A stretch of 64,000 bases of DNA from Candidatus Zambryskibacteria bacterium RIFOXYD1_FULL_40_13 (GCA_001824295.1 MHWY01000002.1:73354-137353); one strand, 5' to 3'; shown: positions 2,661 to 57,300, numbered from the stretch's first letter. A program made the numbers and translations. Notes: generated by a model not told the origin, from the sequence alone.

Positions 2661-3062
2661 ATGGAAACAAAGTCAGGAGAAAGATATATAGAAACAGTTG
2701 GTCGCCGAAAGACAAGTGTGGCGCGTGTTCGTATTACACCAGCAACAAAGACCACTTTTTTGGTTAATGAAAAAGAGCTAGAAAACTATTTTCCAACAAA
2801 AGAAATGCAGAATATTGTGAGACAAGCTCTTTCTGATATCAAGGATAAATTCAAAGTCACTGTTAAAATAAACGGTGGTGGAATTCACTCACAGTCTGAA
2901 GCTGTACGACATGGTATAGCTAGAGCCCTAGTAAGCTTCGATTTAGAACTAAGAAAATCACTTAAGAAGGCAGGCTACCTAAAACGAGACCCTCGAAGTA
3001 AAGAGAGACGAAAATTCGGATTGAAGAAGGCAAGGAAGGCTCCTCAGTGGTCAAAACGATAA
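2661..3062 (+). CDS. rpsI: 30S ribosomal protein S9
   Basis: The product carries the S9 C-terminus ...GYLKRDPRSKERRKFGLKKARKAPQWSKR. Confidence 0.95.
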   Translation: METKSGERYIETVGRRKTSVARVRITPATKTTFLVNEKELENYFPTKEMQNIVRQALSDIKDKFKVTVKINGGGIHSQSEAVRHGIARALVSFDLELRKSLKKAGYLKRDPRSKERRKFGLKKARKAPQWSKR

Positions 3063-3077
3063 AGTCTTCTCCACATC

Positions 3078-3251
3078 ATGATTTATAGACACGCATAAAC
3101 CCCTATTGGGGTTTTGCTATTCTCGTCGATCAAGAAAACAATCTTCCTCGACACTGGCACTCTCGCAAACTCGGCTTTGCCTCAAACAATGCTTCGTGCT
3201 GACGTGCCTCGTCGTTGTTTTCTAATTGACTGCGAAATGTCTATAAATCAT
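3078..3251. repeat. Conserved ~150-bp intergenic element, copy A
   Basis: It has 13-bp complementary arms: ATGATTTATAGAC at 3078-3090 and GTCTATAAATCAT at 3239-3251. The arms enclose the rpsI terminator and a ~125-bp core (ctattctcgtcgatcaagaaaacaat...cgtcgttgttttctaattgactgcgaaatg). The core is nearly identical to positions 7289-7446. Confidence 0.6.
3097..3115 (+). terminator. Intrinsic terminator of rpsI (aaaCCCCtattGGGGtttt)
   Basis: A perfect 4-bp GC stem is followed by a T-tract, 35 nt after the rpsI stop codon. Confidence 0.6.
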
Positions 3252-3279
3252 GGTGTGTCGAATTGATGAAATTAAATAA

Positions 3280-3334
3280 GGAAAAACCGCCAGTCGTGTG
3301 TGACTGGGGGATTTCCCCAGCGCCACGATGGCGG
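3280..3334 (-). terminator. GC-rich intrinsic terminator T1 (ccgccatcgtg...cacgactggcgg + TTTTTCC on the minus strand)
   Basis: A long GC-rich hairpin is followed by a T-tract on the minus strand. It lies directly downstream of the small minus-strand ORF ending at 3335. Both of its ends are shared with T2 at 3750-3804. Confidence 0.6.
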
Positions 3335-3496
3335 TTATATGTTGAGGCTCCCATTTGCCCGAAGGGCAGTCTGCGCCTCCTGTGTACTTCGAAGTGTTTT
3401 TTCCCACTCGTGGTATCTCTTGAGCTGTTTCTCGAGCCGTTTGACCTTTCTCTCGAGTTGCTCTCTCGTCAACCTCTTCTTTAGTACTATTGCCAT
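3335..3496 (-). CDS. Small Lys/Arg/Glu-rich coiled-coil protein, 53 aa (MAIVLKKRLTREQLERKVKRLEKQLKRYHEWEKTLRSTQEAQTALRANGSLNI). Not in the ORF track.
   Basis: The ATG at 3496 is preceded by GGGAGGAAGG. The terminator T1 follows. The ORF sits in a GC-rich island with a3/a2/a1 gene organisation. Confidence 0.45.
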   Translation of the reverse strand: MAIVLKKRLTREQLERKVKRLEKQLKRYHEWEKTLRSTQEAQTALRANGSLNI

Positions 3497-3509
3497 GCCT
3501 TCCTCCCGG

Positions 3510-3686
3510 TTATTCTGTTGGGTCGCTATCGTCGCTCATCCCAAAGATGAACGACCCACACGGGCACGTCGGCCATTCGGCCAAAGCCCCTTCGGGCTGT
3601 GTCTTTGGGAGCTGACTGTGTTCCTCCTCGCTGAACTTCTTGCCGCAGGTCATGCAGTGGTAGATGGTCTTGATTACCTTCGACAT
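3510..3686 (-). CDS. Small Cys-rich zinc-ribbon-like protein, 58 aa (MSKVIKTIYHCMTCGKKFSEEEHSQLPKTQPEGALAEWPTCPCGSFIFGMSDDSDPTE). Not in the ORF track.
   Basis: The ATG at 3686 is preceded by GGAGGG, 9 nt upstream. The protein contains CxxC...CPC. The codon usage is GC-rich. Confidence 0.5.
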   Translation of the reverse strand: MSKVIKTIYHCMTCGKKFSEEEHSQLPKTQPEGALAEWPTCPCGSFIFGMSDDSDPTE

Positions 3687-3749
3687 GGTCGGTACCCTCC
3701 ATTTATCAATTTACCACCATTTAATACTCTGTCAATCAGATTTTATATA

Positions 3750-3804
3750 GGAAAACCGCCAGTCGTGCTAGGCTGGCGGAATTCCGCACAGCGCCACGTT
3801 GGCG
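3750..3804 (-). terminator. GC-rich intrinsic terminator T2, paralogous to T1
   Basis: The hairpin ccgccaacgtggcg...ccagcctagcacgactggcgg is followed by TTTTCCTATAT on the minus strand. It lies 13 nt downstream of the ORF ending at 3817. Confidence 0.6.
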
Positions 3805-3816
3805 GTGTTGGTCTGA

Positions 3817-4062
3817 CTAGACCTTGAAGGTGAACCTATAGTTACCAAATCTCACGGACGACCATGCACCCTCACCCTCGAGGTACCGTCGCCTCACCTC
3901 TGCGATCACTCGCTCTGTCGGGAGCGTGTTGATGTTGACCATGTACTCTGTCTCTCCCGGTCGGAACAGGCTCTCGAGTTTACTGTCGATCTCCACCTCT
4001 AACGAGGTGGCAACCCGCATCTCTTCGTCGGTCAGCTTCAAATCTCTCGGCTTGAGCGCCAT
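3817..4062 (-). CDS. Hypothetical protein, 81 aa, GC-rich ORFan
   Basis: The ATG at 4062 is preceded by AAGGGGG. The GC content is elevated against an AT-rich backbone, and the terminator T2 lies downstream. Confidence 0.55.
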   Translation of the reverse strand: MALKPRDLKLTDEEMRVATSLEVEIDSKLESLFRPGETEYMVNINTLPTERVIAEVRRRYLEGEGAWSSVRFGNYRFTFKV

Positions 4063-4159
4063 ATGGCACCCCCTTTCTTCTTCCTAAGTAATAGCACATA
4101 CCTTTGTATCTGTCAACTATTTTTGAATACTTTAAATACTATGTTAAAATACACACAAC

Positions 4160-4771
4160 ATGACAGATGAAGATAAAAAAGATATTGAAAATAACGACAT
4201 TTTGGCGGAAGAGCCAGAAATAGACACCGACCCTGGAGACGATGTGGTGTTTGAGGATAACACAGAAGTTACAGGAGCTGATTATAAGATTAAAACGGAC
4301 AAACTTCGTACTAAAATAAAAGAATTGGAAAAGAAAAATGCTGAACTCCTAGATGGCTGGCAGAGGGACAAAGCTGAATTCGTTAATGCTAGAAAAAGGG
4401 ACGAAGAGCAGAAAATGGAGTTTTTGAAGTTTTCAAAGGCGGATATTATTGCTGAACTTCTCGCAGTTTTGGATTCTTTTGAATCTGCGTTTAAAAATAA
4501 GGAAGCCTGGGAAAAGGCAGACAAAAATTGGAGAATGGGTGTAGAATACATCCACACTCAACTCATGAACATAATGACTCAGAATGGTTTGAAGGTTGTA
4601 AACCCAGTGGGGGAGAATTATGACCACAATAGGGATGAGGCGGTAGAGACAGTAAAAGTTGACGACGAAAAAGATAATGATAAAATATTGGACGTAATAC
4701 GGGTAGGGTATGAGTTACATGGTAAAGAAATAAGGCCACCAAAGGTAAAAGTTGGACATTATGAAAAATAA
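4160..4771 (+). CDS. grpE: Nucleotide exchange factor GrpE
   Basis: The product has a GrpE-like coiled coil followed by a C-terminal beta domain. The gene lies upstream of dnaK. Confidence 0.93.
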   Translation: MTDEDKKDIENNDILAEEPEIDTDPGDDVVFEDNTEVTGADYKIKTDKLRTKIKELEKKNAELLDGWQRDKAEFVNARKRDEEQKMEFLKFSKADIIAELLAVLDSFESAFKNKEAWEKADKNWRMGVEYIHTQLMNIMTQNGLKVVNPVGENYDHNRDEAVETVKVDDEKDNDKILDVIRVGYELHGKEIRPPKVKVGHYEK

Positions 4772-5071: not shown

Positions 5072-5105
5072 AATGAGAACGCCGAGAACGATGGCGTTCT
5101 CGGCG
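5072..5105 (-). terminator. GC-rich intrinsic terminator (cgccgagaacg-ccat-cgttctcggcg + T-rich on the minus strand)
   Basis: A perfect 11-bp stem lies directly downstream of the minus-strand small ORF ending at 5109. Confidence 0.6.
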
Positions 5106-5108
5106 AGG

Positions 5109-5300
5109 TTACTTCTTCGTGACGGGGAACAGTCGAAGTGTCATGGAATCTTCGGGAGTTGCCGGCCAAGTGTTTGGACCGAGCATCAGCATACCGCCAG
5201 GCCCGCCGGCAACCCTCAACACTTTTGCGAGGATTCGGGCCTCTTCTGAGGTTTCTGTGATGAGCAGAACGTCATCTACGGTCTCTTCGATCAGCTTCAT
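5109..5300 (-). CDS. Small GC-rich ORFan, 63 aa (MKLIEETVDDVLLITETSEEARILAKVLRVAGGPGG...)
   Basis: The start is placed at ATG 5300, which has TAAGGAG 9 nt upstream. The ORF-track start at 5330 is probably too long. The GC content is elevated and the ORF has its own terminator. Confidence 0.55.
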   Translation of the reverse strand: MKLIEETVDDVLLITETSEEARILAKVLRVAGGPGGMLMLGPNTWPATPEDSMTLRLFPVTKK

Positions 5301-5369
5301 GTGCACACTCCTTACTAAACAATATAACATTATATAATAATTGTCAATTATAAATTTAAACTAAAAATT

Positions 5370-7271
5370 ATGAGTAAAACAATTGGTATAGATTTAGGAA
5401 CAACAAACTCTGCCGTGGCCATAATGGAGGCAGGAAATCCAAAAATATTAGAAAATGCAGAGGGTGCTAGAACAACACCTTCCATTATTGCTGTCTCCAA
5501 AACTGGAGAAAGAATTGTTGGTCTCTTAGCCAAGAGACAGGCAGTAACAAATCCAAAGAACACAATCTTTGGTATAAAGAGATTTATTGGTCACACATTT
5601 GATGATGAAGGTGTGCAGAAGGACAAAGCCGTAGTGCCTTTTGAGGTGCTTAAATCAACAACTGGTGGGGTGAAGGTAAAAATGTCAGATAAGGAATACA
5701 CACCAGAGGAAATTTCAGCAATGGTTCTTTCAAAAATCAAGGCGGATGTTGAAGCAAAGATTGGTGAGAAAGTTACAGATGCAATCATTACAGTACCTGC
5801 ATACTTTAACGACTCCCAAAGACAAGCCACAAAGGATGCTGGTGCTATTGCGGGGCTTAATGTCCTCAGAATCATAAACGAACCAACAGCCGCCGCACTT
5901 GCCTATGGATTTGATAAGGGCAAGAAGGAAGAAAAAATAGTTGTCTTCGACTTTGGTGGTGGTACATTTGATGTTTCTGTCTTGGAGGTTGGAGATGCTG
6001 TTGTGGAGGTAAAATCAACAGATGGAGACTCACACATGGGAGGCAAGGATATTGACCAAAAGATTATAAACTTCCTAGCAGATGAATTCAAAAAGGAGTC
6101 CGGAATTGATTTGCGAACCGATACTCTTGCATTACAGAGACTAGATGAATCAGCGGAGAAAGCAAAGATTGAACTTTCCACGGCCATGGAGTCAGAAATA
6201 AATATTCCATTTATCACATCAGACGCATCTGGGCCTAAACACCTACTCATTAAACTAAGTCGAGCAAAACTTGAAGAACTAACTAGTGAATTTATTGACA
6301 GAGCAATGGCTATCACAAAAAGGGCTATGGAGGCTTCTGGATTTGCCGTATCAGATATACACGAAGTTATCCTCGTCGGTGGTCAAACTCGTATGCCAAA
6401 AATGGCAGAGAAGGTCAAGGAGTACTTTGGGAAAGAACCAAACAAATCTATTAACCCCGATGAGGTTGTGGCTCTCGGAGCGGCTATACAGGGTGGTATC
6501 CTTGCAGGAGATGTGAAAGATGTCCTGCTCCTAGATGTTATACCATTGTCGCTTGGTATAGAGACAATGGGAGGGGTTGCCACAAAACTTGTAGATAGAA
6601 ATACCACTATTCCAGCCTCTAGATCACAAGTTTTCTCGACCGCAGCCGATAATCAAACTTCTGTAGAGATACATATTGTGCAAGGAGAGAGAGCTATGGC
6701 TTCGGACAACAAGTCTCTTGGAAGGTTTATCTTAGACGGGATTCCACCTGCACCACGAGGAATGCCACAAATTGAGGTCTTATTTGACGTGGATGCAAAC
6801 GGTATTTTGTCAGTAAAGGCAAAGGATAAGGCTACAAGCAAAGAGCAGTCAATCCGCATTGAAGCACGCTCAAGTCTGTCAAAAGAAGAAATAGAAAAGA
6901 TGCAAAAAGATGCAGAAATGCACGCCCAGGATGACTTGAAGAAAAAAGATTTGGTTGAAGCTAAAAATATAAGTGAACAGCTTATCTACACCGCCGAGAA
7001 ATCGCTTCGTGATGCTGGGGAGAAAGTACCAGCTGAGCTTCGGGTTTCTATCGAAAACAAAGTTACAGACCTTAAGAAAATAAATGATGGAGATGATATG
7101 GAGGCAATTAAGAAAGCCACAACAGAGCTTTCCACAGAGCTTTCCAAAGTAGGGGAGATAATAAACAAAGCCGCACAGGCCGAAGGAGCGAAGAGCGACG
7201 GAGGTGCCGGCACTCAGCAGAGTGACGACAAGGTACGTGATGCGGATTTTGAGGAGAAGAAGGCGGAATAG
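5370..7271 (+). CDS. dnaK: Chaperone DnaK (Hsp70)
   Basis: The product carries the Hsp70 signatures [16 protein letters not shown] and [11 protein letters not shown]. Confidence 0.98.
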
Positions 7272-7275
7272 TTTT

Positions 7276-7459
7276 CTTAATTTAGAACACGTATAAATCG
7301 TTGGTACGATTTTACTATTCTCGTCAATCAAGAAAACAATTTTCCTCAGTGCTGGCCCTTTCGCAAACTCCTCGTTGATTACAACTTCGTCAAACAGTGC
7401 TTCGGGCAGGCGCACTTCGTCGTTGTTTTCTAATTGACTGCGAAATGTTCTAAAATTAA
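7276..7459. repeat. Conserved ~150-bp intergenic element, copy B
   Basis: The arms are CTTAATTTAGAAC at 7276-7288 and GTTCTAAAATTAAG at 7446-7459. They are complementary to each other but differ in sequence from the copy-A arms. The core at 7289-7446 matches 3091-3239. Confidence 0.6.
7295..7314 (+). terminator. Intrinsic terminator of dnaK (aaATCGttggtaCGATtttt)
   Basis: A stem plus T-tract lies 24 nt after the dnaK stop codon. It occupies the same position as the rpsI terminator inside the conserved element. Confidence 0.5.
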
Positions 7460-7483
7460 GAAACTATTCCTCTGGTAGGAAAT

Positions 7484-7533
7484 ACGCAAAAACCCACCAA
7501 CGAAAGTGGACTAGTGCGTCCAGTGTTGGTGGG
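7484..7533 (-). terminator. GC-rich intrinsic terminator (cccaccaac...gttggtggg + TTTTTGCGTAT on the minus strand)
   Basis: The hairpin is followed by a T-tract. A near-identical copy lies at 7756-7804. It sits downstream of the small ORF ending at 7543. Confidence 0.6.
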
Positions 7534-7542
7534 GGGTGGTTG

Positions 7543-7707
7543 TTAGAGTTTCTTCGCGAGACTCTTTTCGAGCCATGATAGTGTAAGGAACACTGTCCCC
7601 ATCACACCACCAAGACCAATGCTCTTGGCGAAGGTGACTCCGAAACCCATACTGATAACACAGACGAGAGCGCCGAGTACCAGGCTTGCGATAGCCGATC
7701 TCTTCAT
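7543..7707 (-). CDS. Small hydrophobic protein, 54 aa (MKRSAIASLVLGALVCVISMGFGVTFAKSIGLGGVMGTVFLTLSWLEKSLAKKL). It is in a different frame from track ORF 7511..7744.
   Basis: The ATG at 7707 is preceded by GGAGGAC. The product looks like a signal peptide or transmembrane segment, and a terminator follows. The track ORF reads through the terminator hairpin and is rejected. Confidence 0.5.
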   Translation of the reverse strand: MKRSAIASLVLGALVCVISMGFGVTFAKSIGLGGVMGTVFLTLSWLEKSLAKKL

Positions 7708-7755
7708 GCAGGTCCTCCAAAATAAATAATATATCAGGAATCACAAATAAACAAT

Positions 7756-7804
7756 ACGCAAAAACCCACCAACGAAAGTGGACTAGTGCGTCCGTGTTGG
7801 TGGG
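7756..7804 (-). terminator. GC-rich intrinsic terminator, paralogue of 7484-7533
   Basis: It shares the cccaccaac/gttggtggg stem. It lies 5 nt downstream of the ORF ending at 7809. Confidence 0.6.
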
Positions 7805-7808
7805 TAGA

Positions 7809-8024
7809 CTACTTCAGGCTAGTCATTTTCCGAAGACGGTTGATGACGGCCTTGCCGCAGTAATTATCAGGCTCTGTCCGGTACCACAGGTTCGTCGATA
7901 CCGTGGATTTCTTGAAGCCTCTTTTCCGTAGCTGGGTCTCCACTTCCTTACGTGTGGCTGGGCCAAAAGGCCCATCGTTTCCCCAAATTGTTCCCGTGTA
8001 GTTCACGACATACTTGGTCTCCAT
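7809..8024 (-). CDS. GC-rich ORFan, 71 aa
   Basis: The ATG at 8024 has AAGGAGG 5 nt upstream. A terminator follows. Confidence 0.55.
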   Translation of the reverse strand: METKYVVNYTGTIWGNDGPFGPATRKEVETQLRKRGFKKSTVSTNLWYRTEPDNYCGKAVINRLRKMTSLK

Positions 8025-8158
8025 CTGTGCCTCCTTAACTAATAATACACCAAATAGTTAAGATAGTCAAGTGCAATAATTATCAAAAAATAGTATTATA
8101 AATTCTGAATTATTTGTAGCCATTCGTTGATTCGTATAATTCGCATATTCGTATCTTT

Positions 8159-13787: not shown

Positions 13788-15242
13788 TTACAATTTTTTT
13801 ATAGCTGTTTGTATGCGAGAAGCCGTCTCTTCTTTCCCAAGAATATAGATAAGGGTGAAGGGATCAGGGCTTTTGTCTTTACCCGACAGGGCAACCCTAA
13901 GTGGCCACAGAACTTCTCCCCTACCCTTTTCAGTAGCATAATCAAACAGTAGTGACTTTATTTTCTCCGTGCTAGTAAACAAATTATCGTCAGCTGACTC
14001 CAGCGTGCTTAGACAAAACTCAAGGTGCATCTTTGCAATTTTTTTATCACTACCCTTCCAACTCAGAAGCTCAGCATTATACTCTGGTGAGTGAAAATAA
14101 TACTCTAACTCCCCTGCCCCAACAAGAGCATCTATGTCTCCCCATTTTGATATATGGTCAAAAATTACGGGACACAGCTTCACTAGAAAACGTTCATCAG
14201 CAGAAATCGAATTACTTTTTAGTCTATTAATAATTTCAGTATTTCTCTCATTTTCAGACATCAGTTTCATATGTTCCTTGTTAAGCCAGTCAAGTTTTGT
14301 ACTGTTCAACTGTGCGCCAGATTTCTGTATTTTTGATATTTCAAAAACTTTTATTAATTCCTCAGTTGTAAATATTTCTTTGTCACCCCCAGGGTTCCAT
14401 CCCAGAAAAGCAAGGAAATTAATCATTGCCACTGGCAAATATCCTTCCTTCCTGTATTCCAAAATATCCTTAGCCCCATCTCTTTTCCCAAGTTTTTTCT
14501 TGCCTCCATCTGCCATAATATGTGGTAAGCACGCATATTCTGGTGGATTTACACCAAGAGCTCCATACACAGAAAGGTACTTTGGTGTTGAGGCAATATA
14601 TTCTTGACCCCTCATGACCAAAGTGACACCCATTTCAATATCATCAACTATGTGTGCAAAATTATATGTTGGATAACCATCACTTTTAATAAGAATAAAA
14701 TCATCAAGCATTTCAGGCCCAGCTGACAAATCCCCAAAAACCATATCGTGCCAGTGGTAGTCTTTCACGGTTGGAACCTTGAAACGCAAAGGCATTGTTC
14801 CATCCCAAGGAGGAGGATTCTGTGGTCTGAATTCACGAAAAAGAAAAGGTCTTTTTTCCTCTTCGGCTTTTTTTCTTAACTCTTCAATCTGCTCTTCACT
14901 TGTGTTATCGGTGTAAGCAAAACCACCATCAATTAATTTTTGTGCGTATTTTTTATACAAATCTAACCTTTCTGATTGTAAATACGTGGCACTCGGCCCG
15001 CCAATTCCAGGACCTTCATCCCAATTTAGCCCAAGCCATTTAAGTGACTCCTGTATGTGCTCGACAGAACCCGAAACCTCTCTTTCCTTATCAGTATCCT
15101 CAATACGCAGAATAAATGTACCGTTATTTTTCTTTGTCCACAGCCAGGCATACAAAGCTGCACGAACATTACCAACATGCATAAAACCTGTTGGGGATGG
15201 TGCAAATCTTGTTACTATTTTTTTGTCATTTATATTTTGCAT
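13788..15242 (-). CDS. gltX: Glutamate--tRNA ligase
   Basis: The product shows the class I HIGH motif (PSPTGFMHVGN) and a GluRS-like architecture. Confidence 0.93.
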   Translation of the reverse strand: MQNINDKKIVTRFAPSPTGFMHVGNVRAALYAWLWTKKNNGTFILRIEDTDKEREVSGSVEHIQESLKWLGLNWDEGPGIGGPSATYLQSERLDLYKKYAQKLIDGGFAYTDNTSEEQIEELRKKAEEEKRPFLFREFRPQNPPPWDGTMPLRFKVPTVKDYHWHDMVFGDLSAGPEMLDDFILIKSDGYPTYNFAHIVDDIEMGVTLVMRGQEYIASTPKYLSVYGALGVNPPEYACLPHIMADGGKKKLGKRDGAKDILEYRKEGYLPVAMINFLAFLGWNPGGDKEIFTTEELIKVFEISKIQKSGAQLNSTKLDWLNKEHMKLMSENERNTEIINRLKSNSISADERFLVKLCPVIFDHISKWGDIDALVGAGELEYYFHSPEYNAELLSWKGSDKKIAKMHLEFCLSTLESADDNLFTSTEKIKSLLFDYATEKGRGEVLWPLRVALSGKDKSPDPFTLIYILGKEETASRIQTAIKKL

Positions 15243-15284
15243 TTACTTTATGGACTTTATAAACTTTACAGACTTTCAACTATT

Positions 15285-16424
15285 CTATTTATCATGTTCC
15301 AGGGCAATGGCAACAATCTCTTTCGCTATTAACTTAGCTGAATCTTTTCTTGCAAAATCATTCGCAGATTTTATCATTTTTTCCTTTTCTCCTGGTGTTT
15401 CCAAAATTCTATCAATTTCAGATACAAGGAGACTATCGGCCAAATTCTTCTCTTCTATGACTATTGCTGCGCCGGATCTTGCATAGGAATACGCGTTAGT
15501 CCTCTGGTCGTGGGAGGTCGGTTCTGGGATTGGAATAATAATTGATGGTTTACCCCAAGAAGCAATTTCAAAAATTGTCGAGCCTGCCCTTGAAACGACA
15601 ATATCACAGAGACCAGCAGATGCGCGCAAGTTCAGCAGGTTTAGGTAATCAAAGGGTTTATATCTTTTTCTATCTGTGTTCCCGCGCAGAATGACATCTG
15701 CGACTTCTTGGATTGCCTTAAAGTTATTTTTTCCTGTTTGATGAATTACTTGATACTTACTTAAAAGTCTTGGCAGAGCATCCATGACTACCTCGTTTAT
15801 AAAAACCGCTCCTTGTGAACCGCCAATAATTAGAACAGTAGGAATATCCTCATCTAACCCGAGAATCTCGCCAGCACCAGTGGTTAATGGCTCACGAACT
15901 TCTTTCCTTAGTGGATTGCCTGTATAAGCCACTTTCTCCTTTTTGAAATAATTTATTGCCTCTGGGTAGGATATAGCGATTTTTCTAGCAAATTTACCGG
16001 CCCAGTTGTTAACCTTGCCAGGTGTGCTGTCAGATTCATGAATGACAACAGGTATTCTAAGTATTCTTGCAGCCAAAAGTGTGGGAAAGCTGGCATAACC
16101 ACCCTTACCGAAAACAACGTCTGGATATATTACATAAACTCTCCAGAGAGCATTTATAGAACCAAAAAAAATCTTAAACAAATCAATAAAATTCAAAAAT
16201 AAGTTTTTGATAGAAATTCTTCTTCTAATTTTTCCGGCACTGACAGGAACAAAGGTAATATTGTTTTCAAATAACAGCCCTTCGTTATATGGGTCAGTAG
16301 ACATATAATAAATTTCTGGCCTAAGGAGGTGATTTTCCTTTACCAGCTCATTTATTTCTTCTGCAATTGCAATAATGGGATAGAAGTGTCCGCCACTACC
16401 TCCACCAGTAAGTAATATTTTCAT
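15285..16424 (-). CDS. murG: UDP-GlcNAc:lipid I N-acetylglucosaminyltransferase
   Basis: The N-terminus is GGGSGGHFYP. The gene sits in the mraY-ftsW-murG neighbourhood. Confidence 0.92.
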   Translation of the reverse strand: MKILLTGGGSGGHFYPIIAIAEEINELVKENHLLRPEIYYMSTDPYNEGLLFENNITFVPVSAGKIRRRISIKNLFLNFIDLFKIFFGSINALWRVYVIYPDVVFGKGGYASFPTLLAARILRIPVVIHESDSTPGKVNNWAGKFARKIAISYPEAINYFKKEKVAYTGNPLRKEVREPLTTGAGEILGLDEDIPTVLIIGGSQGAVFINEVVMDALPRLLSKYQVIHQTGKNNFKAIQEVADVILRGNTDRKRYKPFDYLNLLNLRASAGLCDIVVSRAGSTIFEIASWGKPSIIIPIPEPTSHDQRTNAYSYARSGAAIVIEEKNLADSLLVSEIDRILETPGEKEKMIKSANDFARKDSAKLIAKEIVAIALEHDK

Positions 16425-21475: not shown

Positions 21476-22045
21476 TTAGTTATTTGCTGTATCTAGGTCT
21501 TCTTCCTTTTCTTCAGCAACATCTAGCTGTTGACGCAGCTCATTATACTCAGGTAATTCAGAAATATGGCTTAGACCAAGAAATCGTAAAGCATCAGCTG
21601 TTATATTATAACCTATTACCCTCATATCTGTCTCGCTATTTTTCTTCTCTATAAGACCTCTTAACAATAAATTCCGTAAAGAATACTGAGAATTCACACC
21701 TCTGATATATTCAATCTCCTTCTTACTAACCGGTCCCTTGTAGGCGATTATAGACAATGTCTCTATTCCAGATTTTCCTAAATCTTTTTCTCTCTCTTCT
21801 TTAATTATTTTTTCGATTGTTTCTGAATATTCTGGTGCTGTAGTAATAAGAACCTCATCGTTGTGAACCACAAGTCTCACACCCCGCTCGGACAAGGACT
21901 CGGCAAGACTCTTAGTAGCGACCAAAACATCCTCCTTGGATATATCCAGTGTTTTAGCCAGAAAATCAATACTGACCGGCTCAGCCAAATAAAAAAGTAC
22001 CGCTTCTATCTTATTCACTAATTGTCCTTGGTTTTCTTGCATCAT
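21476..22045 (-). CDS. scpB: Segregation and condensation protein B
   Basis: The product has ScpB winged-helix repeats. The gene lies downstream of scpA. Confidence 0.88.
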   Translation of the reverse strand: MMQENQGQLVNKIEAVLFYLAEPVSIDFLAKTLDISKEDVLVATKSLAESLSERGVRLVVHNDEVLITTAPEYSETIEKIIKEEREKDLGKSGIETLSIIAYKGPVSKKEIEYIRGVNSQYSLRNLLLRGLIEKKNSETDMRVIGYNITADALRFLGLSHISELPEYNELRQQLDVAEEKEEDLDTANN

Positions 22046-22091
22046 GAATTTACTTTACAAACTTTATAACTTTTTACTTTTAACCTGAAAA

Positions 22092-32124: not shown

Positions 32125-33314
32125 TTTGACCTCATGAAATGGAGAGGTTGGACATCACTGCTCTTCAACGCCAGTGCGATCGCGAGACAGTTTGTCTTCG
32201 GTCCGGAAGTGGAAGAGTTGTAGCCGGGTAGCAGGAACCTCATGGACTCAATGTGTTGAGAGTCAACGAGTTTTCTCCAAACCCCAGAAAACCGCTCGTT
32301 CACGAGATTGCCGACCGACATTTCACCGAGCGGACCAAGAAAGCCACAGGTTTGCACATTGCCGTCTGGCAGAACCACCATTCCACGGTGACCTGCACTA
32401 CACGACTGACGTTCAAATGGAAGTGAAATCCGTGGTGCAACCTTGTCGTCCTTGATGTAGTGACCACGAACGTGCTTTGTCGAATCTGATGTCAAATGTC
32501 CGAGCCTCTTCCTCAGAACTTCATACTCTTCCTGAGAGAGCATTTCGCCTGACATGTTGTCTGCACGACCAGCAGGAATCAACCTGCGAATCATGACCGG
32601 CACGCTCAGATTTGAAAAAAACTCGGTAACGCGAACCACTTCATCAATGTTACTCTTCATGACGACAGTGTTCACCCTGACTGGGATACCGACATGTTTG
32701 AGCTCGATTATCCCCTTCATCGTTTTTCTGAAGGAACCAGCGCCTCTGATTGAGTCGTGAACACTCCTCATGCCATCAACACTAACGACGGCCAGGTTAA
32801 GACCAACATCTGCAAGTCTCCTTGCGATATCAGGCTTCACCAGTATGCCATTTGTGCCGATTGACGTTCGAAGACCATTGCGTCGCAGGAGCCTAATGAT
32901 GTCGTACACGACGTTGACCACGAGAGGTTCTCCGCCAGTGAGACGAACCTCTTGGACTCCAGAATTAATGAGATCTTGAACCAACCTAAGCCTTTGTGCG
33001 TCGGACATCTCGTTCGACATACGCCTACCTGAGTTGTTAAAGCAGAATGTGCAATTGATGTTGCACGCTCTGGTGATCTCAAAAAAAATGGTATCCGGTG
33101 CGCTGAAGTTGTTGCCCGGCAGGTAGGACGGCTCACGAATGAGCACGCTGTCCGTCGATAACTGAATCTCTCGCTGGAGATGTTCAGGTACACTACCGGA
33201 CTGAGAGATCGACTCGTACTCGTCTCTATTAATGTATGCGCGCTTGCCTGAGTCCGAATTAAACAGTGTACCACCAAAGACTTCTTTTCGAAGCAGTGCT
33301 TGTCCCTTAGTCAT
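32121..33314 (-). CDS. Radical SAM enzyme with a C-terminal SPASM-like Cys cluster and a ~90-aa N-terminal extension
   Basis: The product has CNINCTFC (CxxxCxxC) and a later Cys-rich segment (CSAGHRG...VQTCGF). The start was moved to ATG 33314 (MTKGQ), which has an AGGAGAG SD and lies downstream of a TTGACA-17-TATTAT promoter. Confidence 0.85.
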   Translation of the reverse strand: MTKGQALLRKEVFGGTLFNSDSGKRAYINRDEYESISQSGSVPEHLQREIQLSTDSVLIREPSYLPGNNFSAPDTIFFEITRACNINCTFCFNNSGRRMSNEMSDAQRLRLVQDLINSGVQEVRLTGGEPLVVNVVYDIIRLLRRNGLRTSIGTNGILVKPDIARRLADVGLNLAVVSVDGMRSVHDSIRGAGSFRKTMKGIIELKHVGIPVRVNTVVMKSNIDEVVRVTEFFSNLSVPVMIRRLIPAGRADNMSGEMLSQEEYEVLRKRLGHLTSDSTKHVRGHYIKDDKVAPRISLPFERQSCSAGHRGMVVLPDGNVQTCGFLGPLGEMSVGNLVNERFSGVWRKLVDSQHIESMRFLLPGYNSSTSGPKTNCLAIALALKSSDVQPLHFMRSK

Positions 33315-42822: not shown

Positions 42823-44067
42823 TTATTCAGATCTTAGTGCTTCTATTGGGTCCATTCTTGAGGCAGAACGAGCTGGAAAAACCCCAAAGAAAATACCTAT
42901 AGAAGCAGATACACCAAAGGCAAGTAAGACTGCGTAAATTGGTACGGAAAAAGTCCAGGTCATATTGGCATTTGTCGCGATTAGGGACACTACCCATCCC
43001 AGAAATGCTCCAAAAGCAATACCTATTATTCCACCAAAAACAGTTACCAAAACCGCCTCCATTAGAAATTCATTCATTATATCTCCCTCCCTGGCACCCA
43101 AAGCTTTTTTAAGGCCAATTTCTGCAGTACGCTCTGTCACAACAACATACATAATATTCATAATACCTACACCACCAACAATCAAAGAAATAGTTGCGAT
43201 TGCAATGAGAAGATAAGTGATTCCAGAAAAAATGGTATTGAATGTTGCCATGGCCTCATCCATGGTTTGAACACTGAAGTCATCTTTATATGGGTCAGTT
43301 ATATTATGGTTATCTCGTACCAAAATTTTTATTTGCTCTACGGTTGAATCGGCTTTGGTTATATCCGCCAACTGAATAATACCTATAGACATATAATCTA
43401 TACCCAATAATTTTTTTTGGGCAGTGGTGATTGGGATAAAGACGATGCCGTCTGTATCAGAAAGCGCTCCTTGTGATTCATACACTCCTATCACCTGAAA
43501 GTTCAAATTACCAAGTCGGAATAGTTTTCCAAGCGGGTCGTCTTGTCCAAACAAGTCCTCTGCGACCTTGCTACCAAGTATGGCAACGGTCGCGCCACTG
43601 CTATCTTCGGCCTCACTATATACCCTACCCTTTGCAAGTTCTGTTTTATCAAAATTAAAACGAGATGCTGACGAGGCATAATAGATTGTACTTTTTTTAT
43701 TACTTCTGTAGATAGCTAGAGCTTGGCCTGTAACTATTCCATAACTGTCAACAACATTCGGCAACTTTTCTATATCATCCAAATCCCTTTGTTTAAAACT
43801 TGTTATCGTAACACCACTGAAGGCAGAACTTATACTTTGTGAGTTTGAGGCCCTGTTCTTGGTTGTGGGAGGGACTTTGGTCTGAATAAATATTGTGTTG
43901 GTACCAAGAGTATCAACCTCGTTGTCTATAAGAGAGCGGAATCCTGCGCCAGCAGACAAAACTAGAATAACCGTACCAATACCAATAATAATACCAAGCA
44001 TTGTCAGGGCAGTTCGTCCGGGATTTGATTTAAGTGCTTTGATGGATTGTTTTAGTGCTGTAATCAT
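42823..44067 (-). CDS. ABC transporter permease, FtsX/MacB-like
   Basis: One N-terminal TM helix is followed by a large periplasmic domain and a C-terminal three-TM FtsX domain. Confidence 0.85.
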   Translation of the reverse strand: MITALKQSIKALKSNPGRTALTMLGIIIGIGTVILVLSAGAGFRSLIDNEVDTLGTNTIFIQTKVPPTTKNRASNSQSISSAFSGVTITSFKQRDLDDIEKLPNVVDSYGIVTGQALAIYRSNKKSTIYYASSASRFNFDKTELAKGRVYSEAEDSSGATVAILGSKVAEDLFGQDDPLGKLFRLGNLNFQVIGVYESQGALSDTDGIVFIPITTAQKKLLGIDYMSIGIIQLADITKADSTVEQIKILVRDNHNITDPYKDDFSVQTMDEAMATFNTIFSGITYLLIAIATISLIVGGVGIMNIMYVVVTERTAEIGLKKALGAREGDIMNEFLMEAVLVTVFGGIIGIAFGAFLGWVVSLIATNANMTWTFSVPIYAVLLAFGVSASIGIFFGVFPARSASRMDPIEALRSE

Positions 44068-44113
44068 AAATTTACTTTACTAACTTTATGGACTTTATAG
44101 ACTTTCGACTATT

Positions 44114-45385
44114 TTATTCGTACCTTAACGCCTCTATGGGGTCAAGTCTTGATGCTTTGAATGATGGATAAAGTCCAAATATAACTCCGGTCAAAATAGA
44201 AACACCCACGGCCAAGACTACAGAAGTAATAGAAATAACAAACTCCCAATCAAAATCCAGATACTGCATGAGCATAGCCATGAGATAGGAAACAATAACA
44301 CCAACGACAATTCCTATAAGCCCACCAATAGATGTAAGAATACTTGCCTCCAATATAAATTGTCGCATGATTACTCTGTTTGTAGCTCCAACGGCCTTTC
44401 TCAAACCAATCTCTCGTGTTCTCTCGGCAACAGTAACAAGCATAATATTGAGAATTCCAATACCGCCGACAATGAGAGCAACCGCGGCCATTGAGGTTAG
44501 AAACAAACTTAATGCTGATGTAATAGTGGTGAGCATCTCCACGGCACTTGCTTGGTTTCTCACGGTAAAATCTATATCGTCATCCGAAATGATATGGTGT
44601 CTCTGTTTCAACACCCTCGTTACATCATCAATTGTTTGATCAATATTATCCGCCGAATCCACTTTCAAACTAATGGCCTGTAAATGATGGATACCAAGAA
44701 GCTGTCCTTGTGCAATAGCTAGCGGAATAAATATTTGGTCATCTTGATCTTGAAAAAAAGCACTACCTCTGGGTGTTATCACGCCCACAATTCTAAGTGG
44801 TACACCACCAGCGTTTTCTTGTGAGGCACTTCTGACCTTGATGATTTGGCCAACTGGGTCAACGCCAGTGCCGTCAAACAAGGCACTACTTACCGTTGAA
44901 CCAAGTACCACGACATTGGCGGAACCATCTATATCTCCGGAATCCATAAACTGTCCCTCCTGCATTGTAAAGTTAACCACTTTTGGATACCCAGAATCAG
45001 TGCCAACAAAATTTGTATCAACGCTTTTGTTTTGCCAAGTCACAGTAGCCACACCGTTTACTACAGCACTTACACCAATAGCGTGCGGAACCTGAGAAGG
45101 AGAACGCAACGCTTCGGTATCAGCGTTAACAAGTGTAGTAATAATAACTCCGTAAACCTGCGCCGGTGGGCCCTTTGGATCACTTTTGCCAGGCTGAACA
45201 CTTAGGAGGTTTGAACCGAGTTTGTTTACTTGTCCCAAGACAAGCGACTGAGCGCCAGCCCCAAGTGAAATAATTATTATCACACCAGCAACACCGATGA
45301 CGATACCCAGCATAGTCAGAAATGACCGCCCTTTTCTTGCCAGAAGATTCCTTACCGTCATTTTAATTGTTGAGATAAAACCCAT
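44114..45385 (-). CDS. ABC transporter permease, FtsX/MacB-like (second paralogue)
   Basis: The product has the same architecture as the previous permease. Confidence 0.85.
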   Translation of the reverse strand: MGFISTIKMTVRNLLARKGRSFLTMLGIVIGVAGVIIIISLGAGAQSLVLGQVNKLGSNLLSVQPGKSDPKGPPAQVYGVIITTLVNADTEALRSPSQVPHAIGVSAVVNGVATVTWQNKSVDTNFVGTDSGYPKVVNFTMQEGQFMDSGDIDGSANVVVLGSTVSSALFDGTGVDPVGQIIKVRSASQENAGGVPLRIVGVITPRGSAFFQDQDDQIFIPLAIAQGQLLGIHHLQAISLKVDSADNIDQTIDDVTRVLKQRHHIISDDDIDFTVRNQASAVEMLTTITSALSLFLTSMAAVALIVGGIGILNIMLVTVAERTREIGLRKAVGATNRVIMRQFILEASILTSIGGLIGIVVGVIVSYLMAMLMQYLDFDWEFVISITSVVLAVGVSILTGVIFGLYPSFKASRLDPIEALRYE

Positions 45386-47819: not shown

Positions 47820-48281
47820 TCACTTCAACCCCTTACAGTTAGACGCTGGTAAGTATCCAGCATTACGGGCTTCTTCTGTGGAGGCAAACTTAATCTGGTT
47901 TTCTGGTTTAATCATTTTGACAGTGCCACACCATGGAAAATAATATTTTTTGCCATTTTTTGAGCCGATGACTTCCCCATTATTCACTGTAGAATTGGGG
48001 CTAATTTGGGCCACATTCTGGGAAAGTGACTGCAATACTGCCCCCGTCTGAACATTAGCCACATATTCAATCTTTATTGGTTCGTGGTGTTCCTCAAGAG
48101 CTGAAAGCCTACCAAGGGCGAAGAAAATAATACCAGTGAGTATTATGACGAATAATACATAAAACGACTTTACCCGGTAGTGAATTTTGGCATCACTTAC
48201 TGTTTGCTCTGAAGGAGCAATGCCAAAATCTACTACCGGGTTGCTTTTTCTCCATAAATCCTTTATACTCATGAAGTTCAT
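47820..48281 (-). CDS. Hypothetical membrane-anchored protein with a C-terminal Cys-containing domain. A palindromic element lies in-frame in its N-terminal tail.
   Basis: The product has one TM helix and a C-terminus ...KYYFPWCG...GYLPASNC. No alternative in-frame start exists downstream of the palindromic element at 48173-48240. Confidence 0.5.
   Translation of the reverse strand: MNFMSIKDLWRKSNPVVDFGIAPSEQTVSDAKIHYRVKSFYVLFVIILTGIIFFALGRLSALEEHHEPIKIEYVANVQTGAVLQSLSQNVAQISPNSTVNNGEVIGSKNGKKYYFPWCGTVKMIKPENQIKFASTEEARNAGYLPASNCKGLK
48173..48240. repeat. Palindromic element copy 2 (CCCGGTAGTGAATTTTGGCAT ... ATGCCAAAATCTACTACCGGG), inside CDS 47820..48281
   Basis: The 21-bp inverted repeat has 2 mismatches and a 26-bp spacer containing the ttgctctgaaggagcaa hairpin. 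It is translated in-frame as the N-terminal tail of the host protein. Confidence 0.6.
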
Positions 48282-57232: not shown

Positions 57233-57300
57233 CCCGGTAGTAGATTTTGCCATTGCTCTTTCAGAGCGGGCAAAGCCCAATGTCAAAATTCACTACCGGG
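57233..57300. repeat. Palindromic element copy 3 (CCCGGTAGTAGATTTTGCCATTG ... CAATGTCAAAATTCACTACCGGG)
   Basis: The 23-bp inverted repeat has a 22-bp spacer with nested hairpins (gctctttcagagc; gggcaaagccc). The right arm overlaps the last codons and supplies the TAG stop of the 916-aa gene. Confidence 0.6.

Follow-up and report, generated by a model that had tools for sequence, protein, structure and literature searches.

In Proteobacteria, the REP/BIME and REPIN sequences are short, intergenic, non-coding palindromes that are moved by RAYT transposases and have side effects on mRNA ends. Bacterial miniature inverted-repeat transposable elements (MITEs), such as Correia/NEMIS in Neisseria, RUP and BOX in Streptococcus, and ERIC in enterobacteria, can bear terminator-like or promoter-like parts. 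The insertion sequences (ISs) IS1397 and ISKpn1 and elements of the IS1111 family target REP sequences or other hairpins and end up bracketed by the two halves of a palindrome. We analyzed a repeat element present in two copies, A and B, directly 3′ of rpsI and dnaK, respectively, in a 64-kb stretch (hereafter the window) of the genome of Candidatus Zambryskibacteria bacterium RIFOXYD1_FULL_40_13 (GCA_001824295.1 MHWY01000002.1:73354-137353). This element is best described as belonging to a new family of non-autonomous, structure-defined mobile repeats, akin in kind to REP/BIME and MITEs.

The resemblance to both groups is partial. Like REP/BIME and REPIN sequences, the element occurs in many copies just after stop codons, in both orientations, with hairpins that can form on a single strand. 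However, it is 3 to 6 times longer and Y-shaped, and whereas the arms of REP sequences are themselves conserved, the conserved part here is internal, a junction with a bulged helix, and the stem is variable and largely site-specific. No RAYT (Y1/HUH) transposase was found beside any copy among the flanking open reading frames (ORFs) examined. With MITEs the element shares a length of 100 to 200 bp, the non-autonomous state, the intergenic location, a strong secondary structure, and subfamilies with internal deletions. In contrast, the conserved terminal inverted repeats and direct target-site duplication of MITEs were both looked for and neither was found. The hairpin-targeting ISs differ in being autonomous, with a transposase, and in targeting a conserved repeat family, whereas the element is non-coding.

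Copies A (3067-3262) and B (7265-7470), both on the plus strand, each consist of a repeat core and a closing inverted repeat, and both carry the same subtype, hereafter the A/B subtype. The initial annotation had reported two copies with a common core at these places, and both are present: they align with a mean column identity of 82%, the conserved blocks that had been listed were found, and the variable middle contains a 10-nucleotide (nt) indel. In a pairwise identity matrix the two cores, although from the same genome, are 76% identical. Four blocks (CTATTCTCGTCRATCAAGAAAACAATYTTCCTC, TCGCAAACTC, TCAAACARTGCTTCG, and TCGTCGTTGTTTTCTAATTGACTGCGAAATGT) are identical in A and B, and the 30-mer CGTCGTTGTTTTCTAATTGACTGCGAAATG of the right block occurs exactly twice in the window, with 0 occurrences expected from 100 shuffles. 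Neither nhmmer nor a covariance model with filters off detected a third copy in the 64 kb; the covariance-model scores were 183 bits for A, 170 bits for B, and 16 for the next match. ORFs of 39 to 50 amino acids cross copy A, but A and B differ by the 10-nt and other non-triplet indels, which rules out a coding role.

Searching relatives for the core, as the initial annotation had suggested, yielded further copies, and every full match comprised the core with inverted arms. The family numbers at least 30 copies in related Paceibacteria/Zambryskibacteria assemblies, and its members are imperfect palindromes of about 90 to 260 bp. The 20-mer TTGTTTTCTAATTGACTGCG occurs at 9 loci in species-representative genomes and on 14 metagenome contigs, with no match in viral contigs. 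A covariance model built from 16 copies found extra copies in the loci already collected (designated L plus a number): three in 8 kb in one common orientation in L005, three in L011, two in L010, and two adjacent copies of opposite orientation in L023. Single loci hold up to 3 to 4 copies within 8 kb. A divergent subtype with a different long arm (GTCAAGAGCC...GGTCTATGAC) was spotted by eye after rpsI and dnaK in relatives, and a hidden Markov model of it gave further matches in L011, L021, L003, and L030. Copy sizes range from 88 nt (L011 5170-5257) to 263 nt (L015/L025), with mini copies of 88 to 127 nt, one of 94 nt in L028 among them. In the largest (L015 1626-1888, the same as in L025), the long arm holds two nested copies of a ~95-nt repeat (CCTTACAGGAnCnGTACAC...GATTACAAA...GTCTTGCRAAGTGATAAYATCACTTCTCACTC), indicating that this arm tolerates insertions.

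No Rfam family matched any subtype, the only matches being tRNAs, whether in the window and 9 related loci at gathering thresholds or in positions 3000 to 4200 on both strands at E ≤ 10. No description of the family was found in full-text literature searches on repeats in the candidate phyla radiation (CPR)/Patescibacteria, structured RNAs, and inverted target duplications. The window belongs to a genome of the Paceibacteria (Parcubacteria). Its RpsI protein has identical counterparts in GCA_003497585.1 (contig DNNP01000002.1) and in many metagenome samples, the source organism being present in at least 81 sample blocks, and the closest GrpE homologues carry the names Zambryskibacteria or Paceibacterota. 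CAYVNM01 (L003 and L029), a metagenome-assembled genome (MAG) labelled Saccharibacteria, has the gene order of the window and 82% GrpE identity to it; we therefore regard the family as Paceibacteria-wide. A 3.8-kb contig labelled Nitrospira is probably misbinned.

The consensus fold of the 16 copies, computed with RNAalifold, is a Y-shaped three-way junction rather than the rod first proposed, with a closing stem (P1), a short hairpin (P2), and a long arm (P3). In copy A, the left arm of P1 (TTCTCCACATCATGATTTATAGACA, 3067-3091) starts 4 to 9 nt past the rpsI stop codon (3060-3062) and forms an inverted repeat of 25 nt at 88% with the right arm (TGTCTATAAATCATGGTGTGTCGAA, 3238-3262); in the well-paired part (3072-3091 with 3238-3257), 19 of 20 positions pair by local alignment. 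P2 (GCATAAACCCC-TATT-GGGGTTTTGC, 3093-3117) is supported by both the consensus and the fold of the copy itself, its T-run pairing with the preceding A-run. P3 (3120-3236) has a base in which TCGTCGATCAAGAAAACAA pairs with TTGTTTTCTAATTGACTGCGA, an A-rich bulge of 1 to 3 nt, and a variable distal part that terminates in the small hairpin GGC-TTT-GCC. About 20 nt separate the end of the right arm from the terminator of the convergent GC-rich cassette.

Copy B is built in the same way. The first 7 nt of its left arm (GGAATAGTTTTCTTAATTTAGAACA, 7265-7289) are the last codon and stop of dnaK (GAA TAG; stop at 7269-7271; ORF 5370-7271), a stop-to-arm gap of −7, and the outer end of its right arm (TGTTCTAAAATTAAGAAACTATTCC, 7446-7470), CTATTCC, repeats GGAATAG from the end of dnaK in inverted form. 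The two arms match over 25 nt at 84% ungapped, and 24 of 25 positions pair with a one-base offset that reflects an extra A in the right arm. P2 (GTATAAATCG-TTGGTA-CGATTTTAC, 7291-7315) is of a hairpin type also found in L009 and L023, and P3 (7318-7444) has the conserved base of copy A with a distal hairpin, GTTG-ATTA-CAAC, like that of L003. Between A and B, arm identity is only 39%. Thus, the inverted arms described earlier as 13 bp, perfect, and different between copies are real and do differ, but they extend to 20 to 25 bp and contain mismatches.

Covariation supports the fold. The consensus contains 54 pairs, 32 of which show changes on both sides. Across the 16 copies, 93.0% of 860 cells are paired, compared with 76.5% in shuffles (0 of 500 reached the observed value) and with 37 to 48% when the partners are slid; double changes occupy 143 cells versus 45. 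The covariation of the arms seen between A and B is thereby confirmed and greatly extended over the family. The short hairpin is likewise kept in structure and not in sequence, as had been proposed: all 10 pairs of P2 are paired in 100% of copies and 7 covary, its stem varying between subfamilies while the loop stays similar (T-G/A-G/T-T). P3 helices 3 to 5 are 95 to 96% paired, and the distal hairpin of P3 covaries (GGC/GCC, GGGC/GCCC, GTTG/CAAC, and CAGG/CCTG). Compensatory variants of the P3 base also occur outside the alignment, AAGGAAACAA/TTGTTTCCT in L010 and AATAAAACAA/TTGTTTTAT in L011, and at the junction CGGA/TCCG replaces CGCA/TGCG in L005. The main and divergent subtypes have in common the junction CGC.../...CTGCG and a helix of UCA-AGA opposite UCU-A(AU)-UGA with the A-rich 1- to 3-nt bulge. 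Two further motifs were considered by reading and rejected: the G.A/A.G pattern of a K-turn is not present at the P3 bulge, and a conserved TTGACT lacks the consistently placed −10 box of an outward promoter.

The core and the closing stem have different histories. The cores of L003, between yebC and ruvC, and L008, after a gene for an FKBP-like protein in a different MAG, differ at 3 of 158 positions (98% identity), whereas their arms are 41% identical. The same contrast holds for L009 and L023 (core 94%, arms 42%) and for B and L003 (core 91%, arms 45%); between most copies the arms are 24 to 60% identical, with cores reaching 98%. Slow compensatory drift cannot explain near-identical cores with unrelated arms. 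The core is copied without the arms, and the copied unit is the core plus the few inner base pairs of P1, in the A/B subtype roughly from ACACGC to AATGTC. Only the inner arm resembles other copies (a T-run, 1 to 3 bases, purines, then C(A)), a likeness that could be inherited sequence or a target preference. The repeat that flanks the element is inverted and differs from site to site.

In six copies, the left arm overlaps the stop or last codons of the upstream gene and the right arm carries these in inverted form. The overlaps are GGAATAG in B, GCCGAATAG in L003, AGTAA in L016, AATAG in L026, AGAATAA in L028, and GAGAACAAATAA in L031. The dnaK tail is host sequence, as it aligns with the element-free L030 (CCGGAAGAAGGAAAGTAA). 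Both mismatches in the coding overlaps are synonymous, the gene having GAA and the copy GAG in L003, and the gene AAC and the copy AAT in L031, which fits right arms that were copied from the gene end and have drifted since. That six right arms are inverted coding sequence argues that the stem was made at the site and not found there.

Occupancy of orthologous sites turns over between relatives. After dnaK, four different subtypes are found in the window, L026, L028, and L031, and no element in L030; the site after rpsI is occupied by the A/B subtype in the window and by the divergent subtype in L026, L029, and L030, and is empty in L028. At the dnaK site, the window and L026 (93% GrpE identity) have the outer helix TAGTTT/AAACTA in common and carry different subtypes. 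L028 and L031 hold two further subtypes there, and in both of them, too, the stem extends as far as the stop codon (in L028, TAA pairs with TTA). For each of the two window sites there is a relative that has the same outermost helix around a different core. None of three element-free sites has a palindrome: L028 after rpsI, L030 after dnaK, and the leader of a uvrA-like gene in L008, compared with L007.

Two observations concern the rpsI site. The orthologous divergent-subtype copy at L030 5303-5452 has lost its right outer arm, and the grpE promoter follows it directly, with no cassette; the long outer stem is therefore dispensable for the persistence of a copy. In addition, L026 (4041-4155) and L028 (492-610) have an insertion of ~90 nt in the 3′ end of rpsI that is absent at window position 3062. 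It contains a hairpin (GTCCCGTACTGAGC...GCTCTAGTACTGGGAC) and lies between diverged direct repeats of the last ~30 nt of rpsI, leaving the gene end complete; it looks like a different small mobile element.

We consider it probable that A and B are members of a family of non-coding, non-autonomous mobile hairpins whose closing stem is rebuilt at each site, by fold-back copying, by landing in older palindromes, or by both. The core and the few inner base pairs of P1 are copied from place to place, and the remainder of P1 would be produced at each site. By one route, the inserted hairpin would fold back at its 3′ end, or a nascent strand would do so later, and the upstream flank would be copied, so that the right side receives a duplicate of host sequence in inverted form. 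By the other, a new core would insert into the stem of an older copy, whose outer helix it would take over. Such copies, presumably selfish, would survive only where a few bases separate a stop codon from the promoter or convergent terminator that follows, which would account for both window copies directly following rpsI and dnaK, and any putative effect on transcript ends would be a by-product.

The fold-back step has parallels. In quasi-palindrome templated mutation, or intrastrand template switching, a 3′ end snaps back on a nearby inverted repeat and copies its own upstream sequence. The end product is a created or extended palindrome, as in the arms of the element; however, such snap-back is known from repair or mutation and not from the way mobile elements propagate, and its role here is proposed from sequence alone. 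In yeast, fold-back priming has been reported to lead to inverted duplications (PMC10622511). We know of no bacterial repeat family that combines a conserved core with a stem newly made at each site by copying host sequence. A bolder proposal, possible though doubtful, is that the family represents a new class of prokaryotic mobile DNA, recognized by the shape of its folded junction and not by terminal repeats, integrating beside T-rich sequence or within hairpins already present, and building its stem by fold-back copying of the upstream flank, with an inverted instead of a direct target duplication that can fossilize the 3′ ends of host genes.

Several points weigh against a mobile family with rebuilt stems. 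Fold-back copying is deduced from its presumed end products, and the census was seeded with one exact 20-mer and one gene neighbourhood, which biases the sampling. No transposase or other mobilizing gene and no long autonomous version was found; all-against-all clustering of the ORFs in the loci gave no common protein except pseudo-ORFs across the element, and L020, taken up as a lead to an autonomous version, proved to match the right end only, on an unrelated GC-rich contig. No consistent direct repeat was seen in the flanks of A, B, L003, L006, L008, and L009, nor, between copies, conserved termini or terminal inverted repeats beyond the inner few base pairs, or ~30 nt in the divergent subtype. 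In that subtype, the unrelated loci L021 and L026 share ~30 nt of arm sequence (AAAATCTCTTTCTCGTCATATCTTTTGA...), so that arms travel with the element and the moving unit is not identical in all subfamilies. Element-free sites could be precise deletions rather than virgin sites. Finally, the presence of an element after dnaK in four of five relatives could mean that it is useful there, and its regular position and orientation bias could also be produced by selection for a host function.

These last points lead to the strongest competing explanation, which we nevertheless find rather unlikely, namely that the transcribed Y is an RNA module selected by the host as a 3′-end element. P1 would then be a processing or stabilizing stem of the RNase III type, or the A-tract, hairpin, and T-tract would serve as a bidirectional terminator or insulator, and the arms would be kept by selection for RNA pairing. 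In all 18 sense copies, the start of P1 does fall between −12 and +19 nt relative to the stop codon upstream, some 18 of 25 copies are in sense orientation with respect to surrounding transcription and some 7 antisense, and a good promoter lies just past the right arm wherever a co-directional gene follows. However, in compact genomes the gap from a stop codon to the following promoter or convergent terminator is the only place where an insertion would be tolerated, which explains the position without a function and still leaves room for one. The antisense copies also speak against a 3′-end role. Three orthologous ones (L004, L011, and L021) have a stable place downstream of the mraZ promoter and ahead of the mraZ start codon, hence in the 5′ leader. 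An antisense copy in L007 similarly occupies the 5′ leader of the uvrA-like gene. In addition, relatives do without the element at both window sites, and cores that are 98% identical inside unrelated arms point to copying.

The mraZ promoter region (L011 1340-1410, L004, and L021) contains GTGGG repeats ~10 nt apart around an extended −10 box, which we take to be MraZ boxes, the binding sites of MraZ; the three antisense copies lie downstream of both promoter and boxes. A window region considered as the orthologous mraZ site (21476-22045) was set aside when its translation, by eye, looked like ScpB and not MraZ.

P2 of A and B resembles a weak terminator, with 4 G-C pairs followed by TTTT in copy A, and the initial annotation had taken this stem and T-tract for the terminator of the upstream gene. 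In the consensus, however, the T-tract pairs with an upstream ATAAA, and a terminator scan gave no call. As the T-tract is absent from P2 in several other subfamilies, a terminator role is not a feature of the family.

Wobble pairs bear on which strand is folded. On the plus, or sense, strand, one P3 pair is U.G in 13 of 16 copies and two others are G.U in 4 and 3, against 3 to 4 A.C, which would point to the plus strand as the folded one and favor an RNA; these wobble pairs are largely inherited. P1 tells a different story. A first impression from 4 to 5 cases, that arm mismatches were G.U pairs of the minus strand, was overturned by a count over 781 positions, which gave 12 G.T, 27 A.C, and 45 other mismatches, with the same split in sense and antisense copies and hence no preference for G.U on the sense strand. 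P2 contains no wobble pair in 160 cells, which would be unusual for an RNA helix under selection. Watson-Crick hairpins without strand-consistent wobble fit formation at the DNA level better than selection on RNA, although this is weak evidence.

Less credence still can be given to insertion that is purely palindrome-targeted, in which the element enters the center of a pre-existing host palindrome and the arms are the target halves. The outer helices that the dnaK and rpsI sites have in common with relatives carrying other cores suit it, as do the other repeats nested in or adjacent to family members (L015, L023, and L011), and the T-run followed by purines in the inner left arms could reflect a target preference. 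However, palindromes are lacking at the three element-free sites, stems of 18 to 55 bp that include last codons would need to pre-exist everywhere, and the synonymous mismatches are those expected of an arm copied from a gene end. The only palindromes demonstrably occupied are the stems of older family members. The suggestion that the repeat is a mobile element whose arms are a split target thus holds as regards mobility, arms that are mostly site-specific, and outer helices shared by different cores; the absence of a palindrome from empty sites and the six arms that copy coding sequence speak against the rest.

The surroundings of A and B invite another explanation, in which the element is a recombination or attachment site that recruits GC-rich minus-strand cassettes. 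As had been noted at the outset, each copy lies directly 3′ of rpsI or dnaK and before a GC-rich minus-strand block. The local order is rplQ-rplM-rpsI, copy A, GC-rich minus-strand small genes (~3260-4135), grpE, an ORF of 105 amino acids (aa), a lone GC-rich minus-strand gene (5075-5350), dnaK, copy B, a second GC-rich block (~7460-8075), and dnaJ. The cassettes have a GC content of 50 to 57%, versus ~37%, and run antisense to the ribosomal-protein and heat shock protein operons. Others were delimited in relatives at L026 4470-5320 and 8650-9700, L028 3900-4240, and L029 5070-5400, and the spacer after dnaK holds one in L028, two in the window, and three in L026.

Each cassette has a sigma-70-type (TTGACA-type) promoter, a Shine-Dalgarno sequence, one or two small ORFs, and a branched terminator. 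No Pfam domain was found in the cassette ORFs (53 to 81 aa), and the 81-aa protein has no homologue outside its own cluster among 5.8 billion proteins, with a single local match (39%, L026). The layout appears integron-like, but each cassette has its own predicted promoter. An attC site of an integron bounds every cassette, whereas the element occurs without cassettes and cassettes without the element, and the loci examined showed no integrase. Nor is this a retron msr-msd, which has a1/a2 repeats and a reverse transcriptase directly downstream; the neighbors of A and B are rpsI, dnaK, and the Pfam-less ORFs.

In the window and in L026, L028, and L029, the element and the last cassette's terminator are indeed 20 to 35 nt apart. 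However, what cassettes have in common as a repeat is their own terminator, which recurs within a spacer, is specific to that spacer, and is retained in relatives even where the ORFs differ. Elsewhere, most copies lack a neighboring cassette, including those between yebC and ruvC, before rplI, and in the mraZ and uvrA-like leaders. Conversely, cassettes without an element are found at 5075-5350 in the window, in the rpsI-grpE spacer of L028, and in the dnaK-dnaJ spacer of L030. An attachment site is therefore highly improbable, and element and cassettes are neighbors in the window because both occupy the same convergent spacers.

Equally hard to credit is a stand-alone gene for a small RNA, 6S-like or otherwise regulatory, in two paralogous copies: the predicted fold of copy A is strong against shuffles (plus strand, z = −10.7; minus strand, z = −8.6), covariation is extensive, and 6S RNA (RF00013) is also ~180 nt long with a long closing helix, but 6S RNA has a central bubble and 1 to 2 genes per genome, whereas the element is a three-way junction of 88 to 263 nt in several copies per genome, ~7 of 25 being antisense, its presence varies among close relatives, no 6S or other covariance model matched in the Rfam searches described above, and no promoter is conserved, the candidate TTGCTA-N17-AACAAT being missing, by reading, from some subfamilies.

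Other repeats were observed in the window. A second palindromic family (1823-1947, 48172-48241, and 57233-57300; also ACTACCGG at 33192) has conserved terminal inverted repeats of 21 to 22 bp (ACCCGGTAGTRRAWWWTGNCAT) enclosing 10 to 83 nt with a GCTC...GAGC hairpin, and one of its right arms supplies the ATG of a longer rplQ ORF call. Direct repeats of ACTTTAYRRACTTTATARACTTT lie in intergenic regions upstream of operons (15226-15290, 22033-22074, and 44064-44119, and in the right flank of L015/L025) and may be an operator or promoter motif.

The family of which A and B are members yields a covariance model for annotating genomes of the Paceibacteria type, with the caution that covariation of such repeats is no proof of a functional RNA. 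If the fold-back model is true, it would represent a new integration route for mobile DNA, and the arms of the element would be a natural record of ancestral gene ends. The family marks intergenic sites of rapid change in genome content. It turns over between close relatives even in ribosomal-protein and dnaK operons, and the very small, streamlined CPR genomes are thus less static than assumed.

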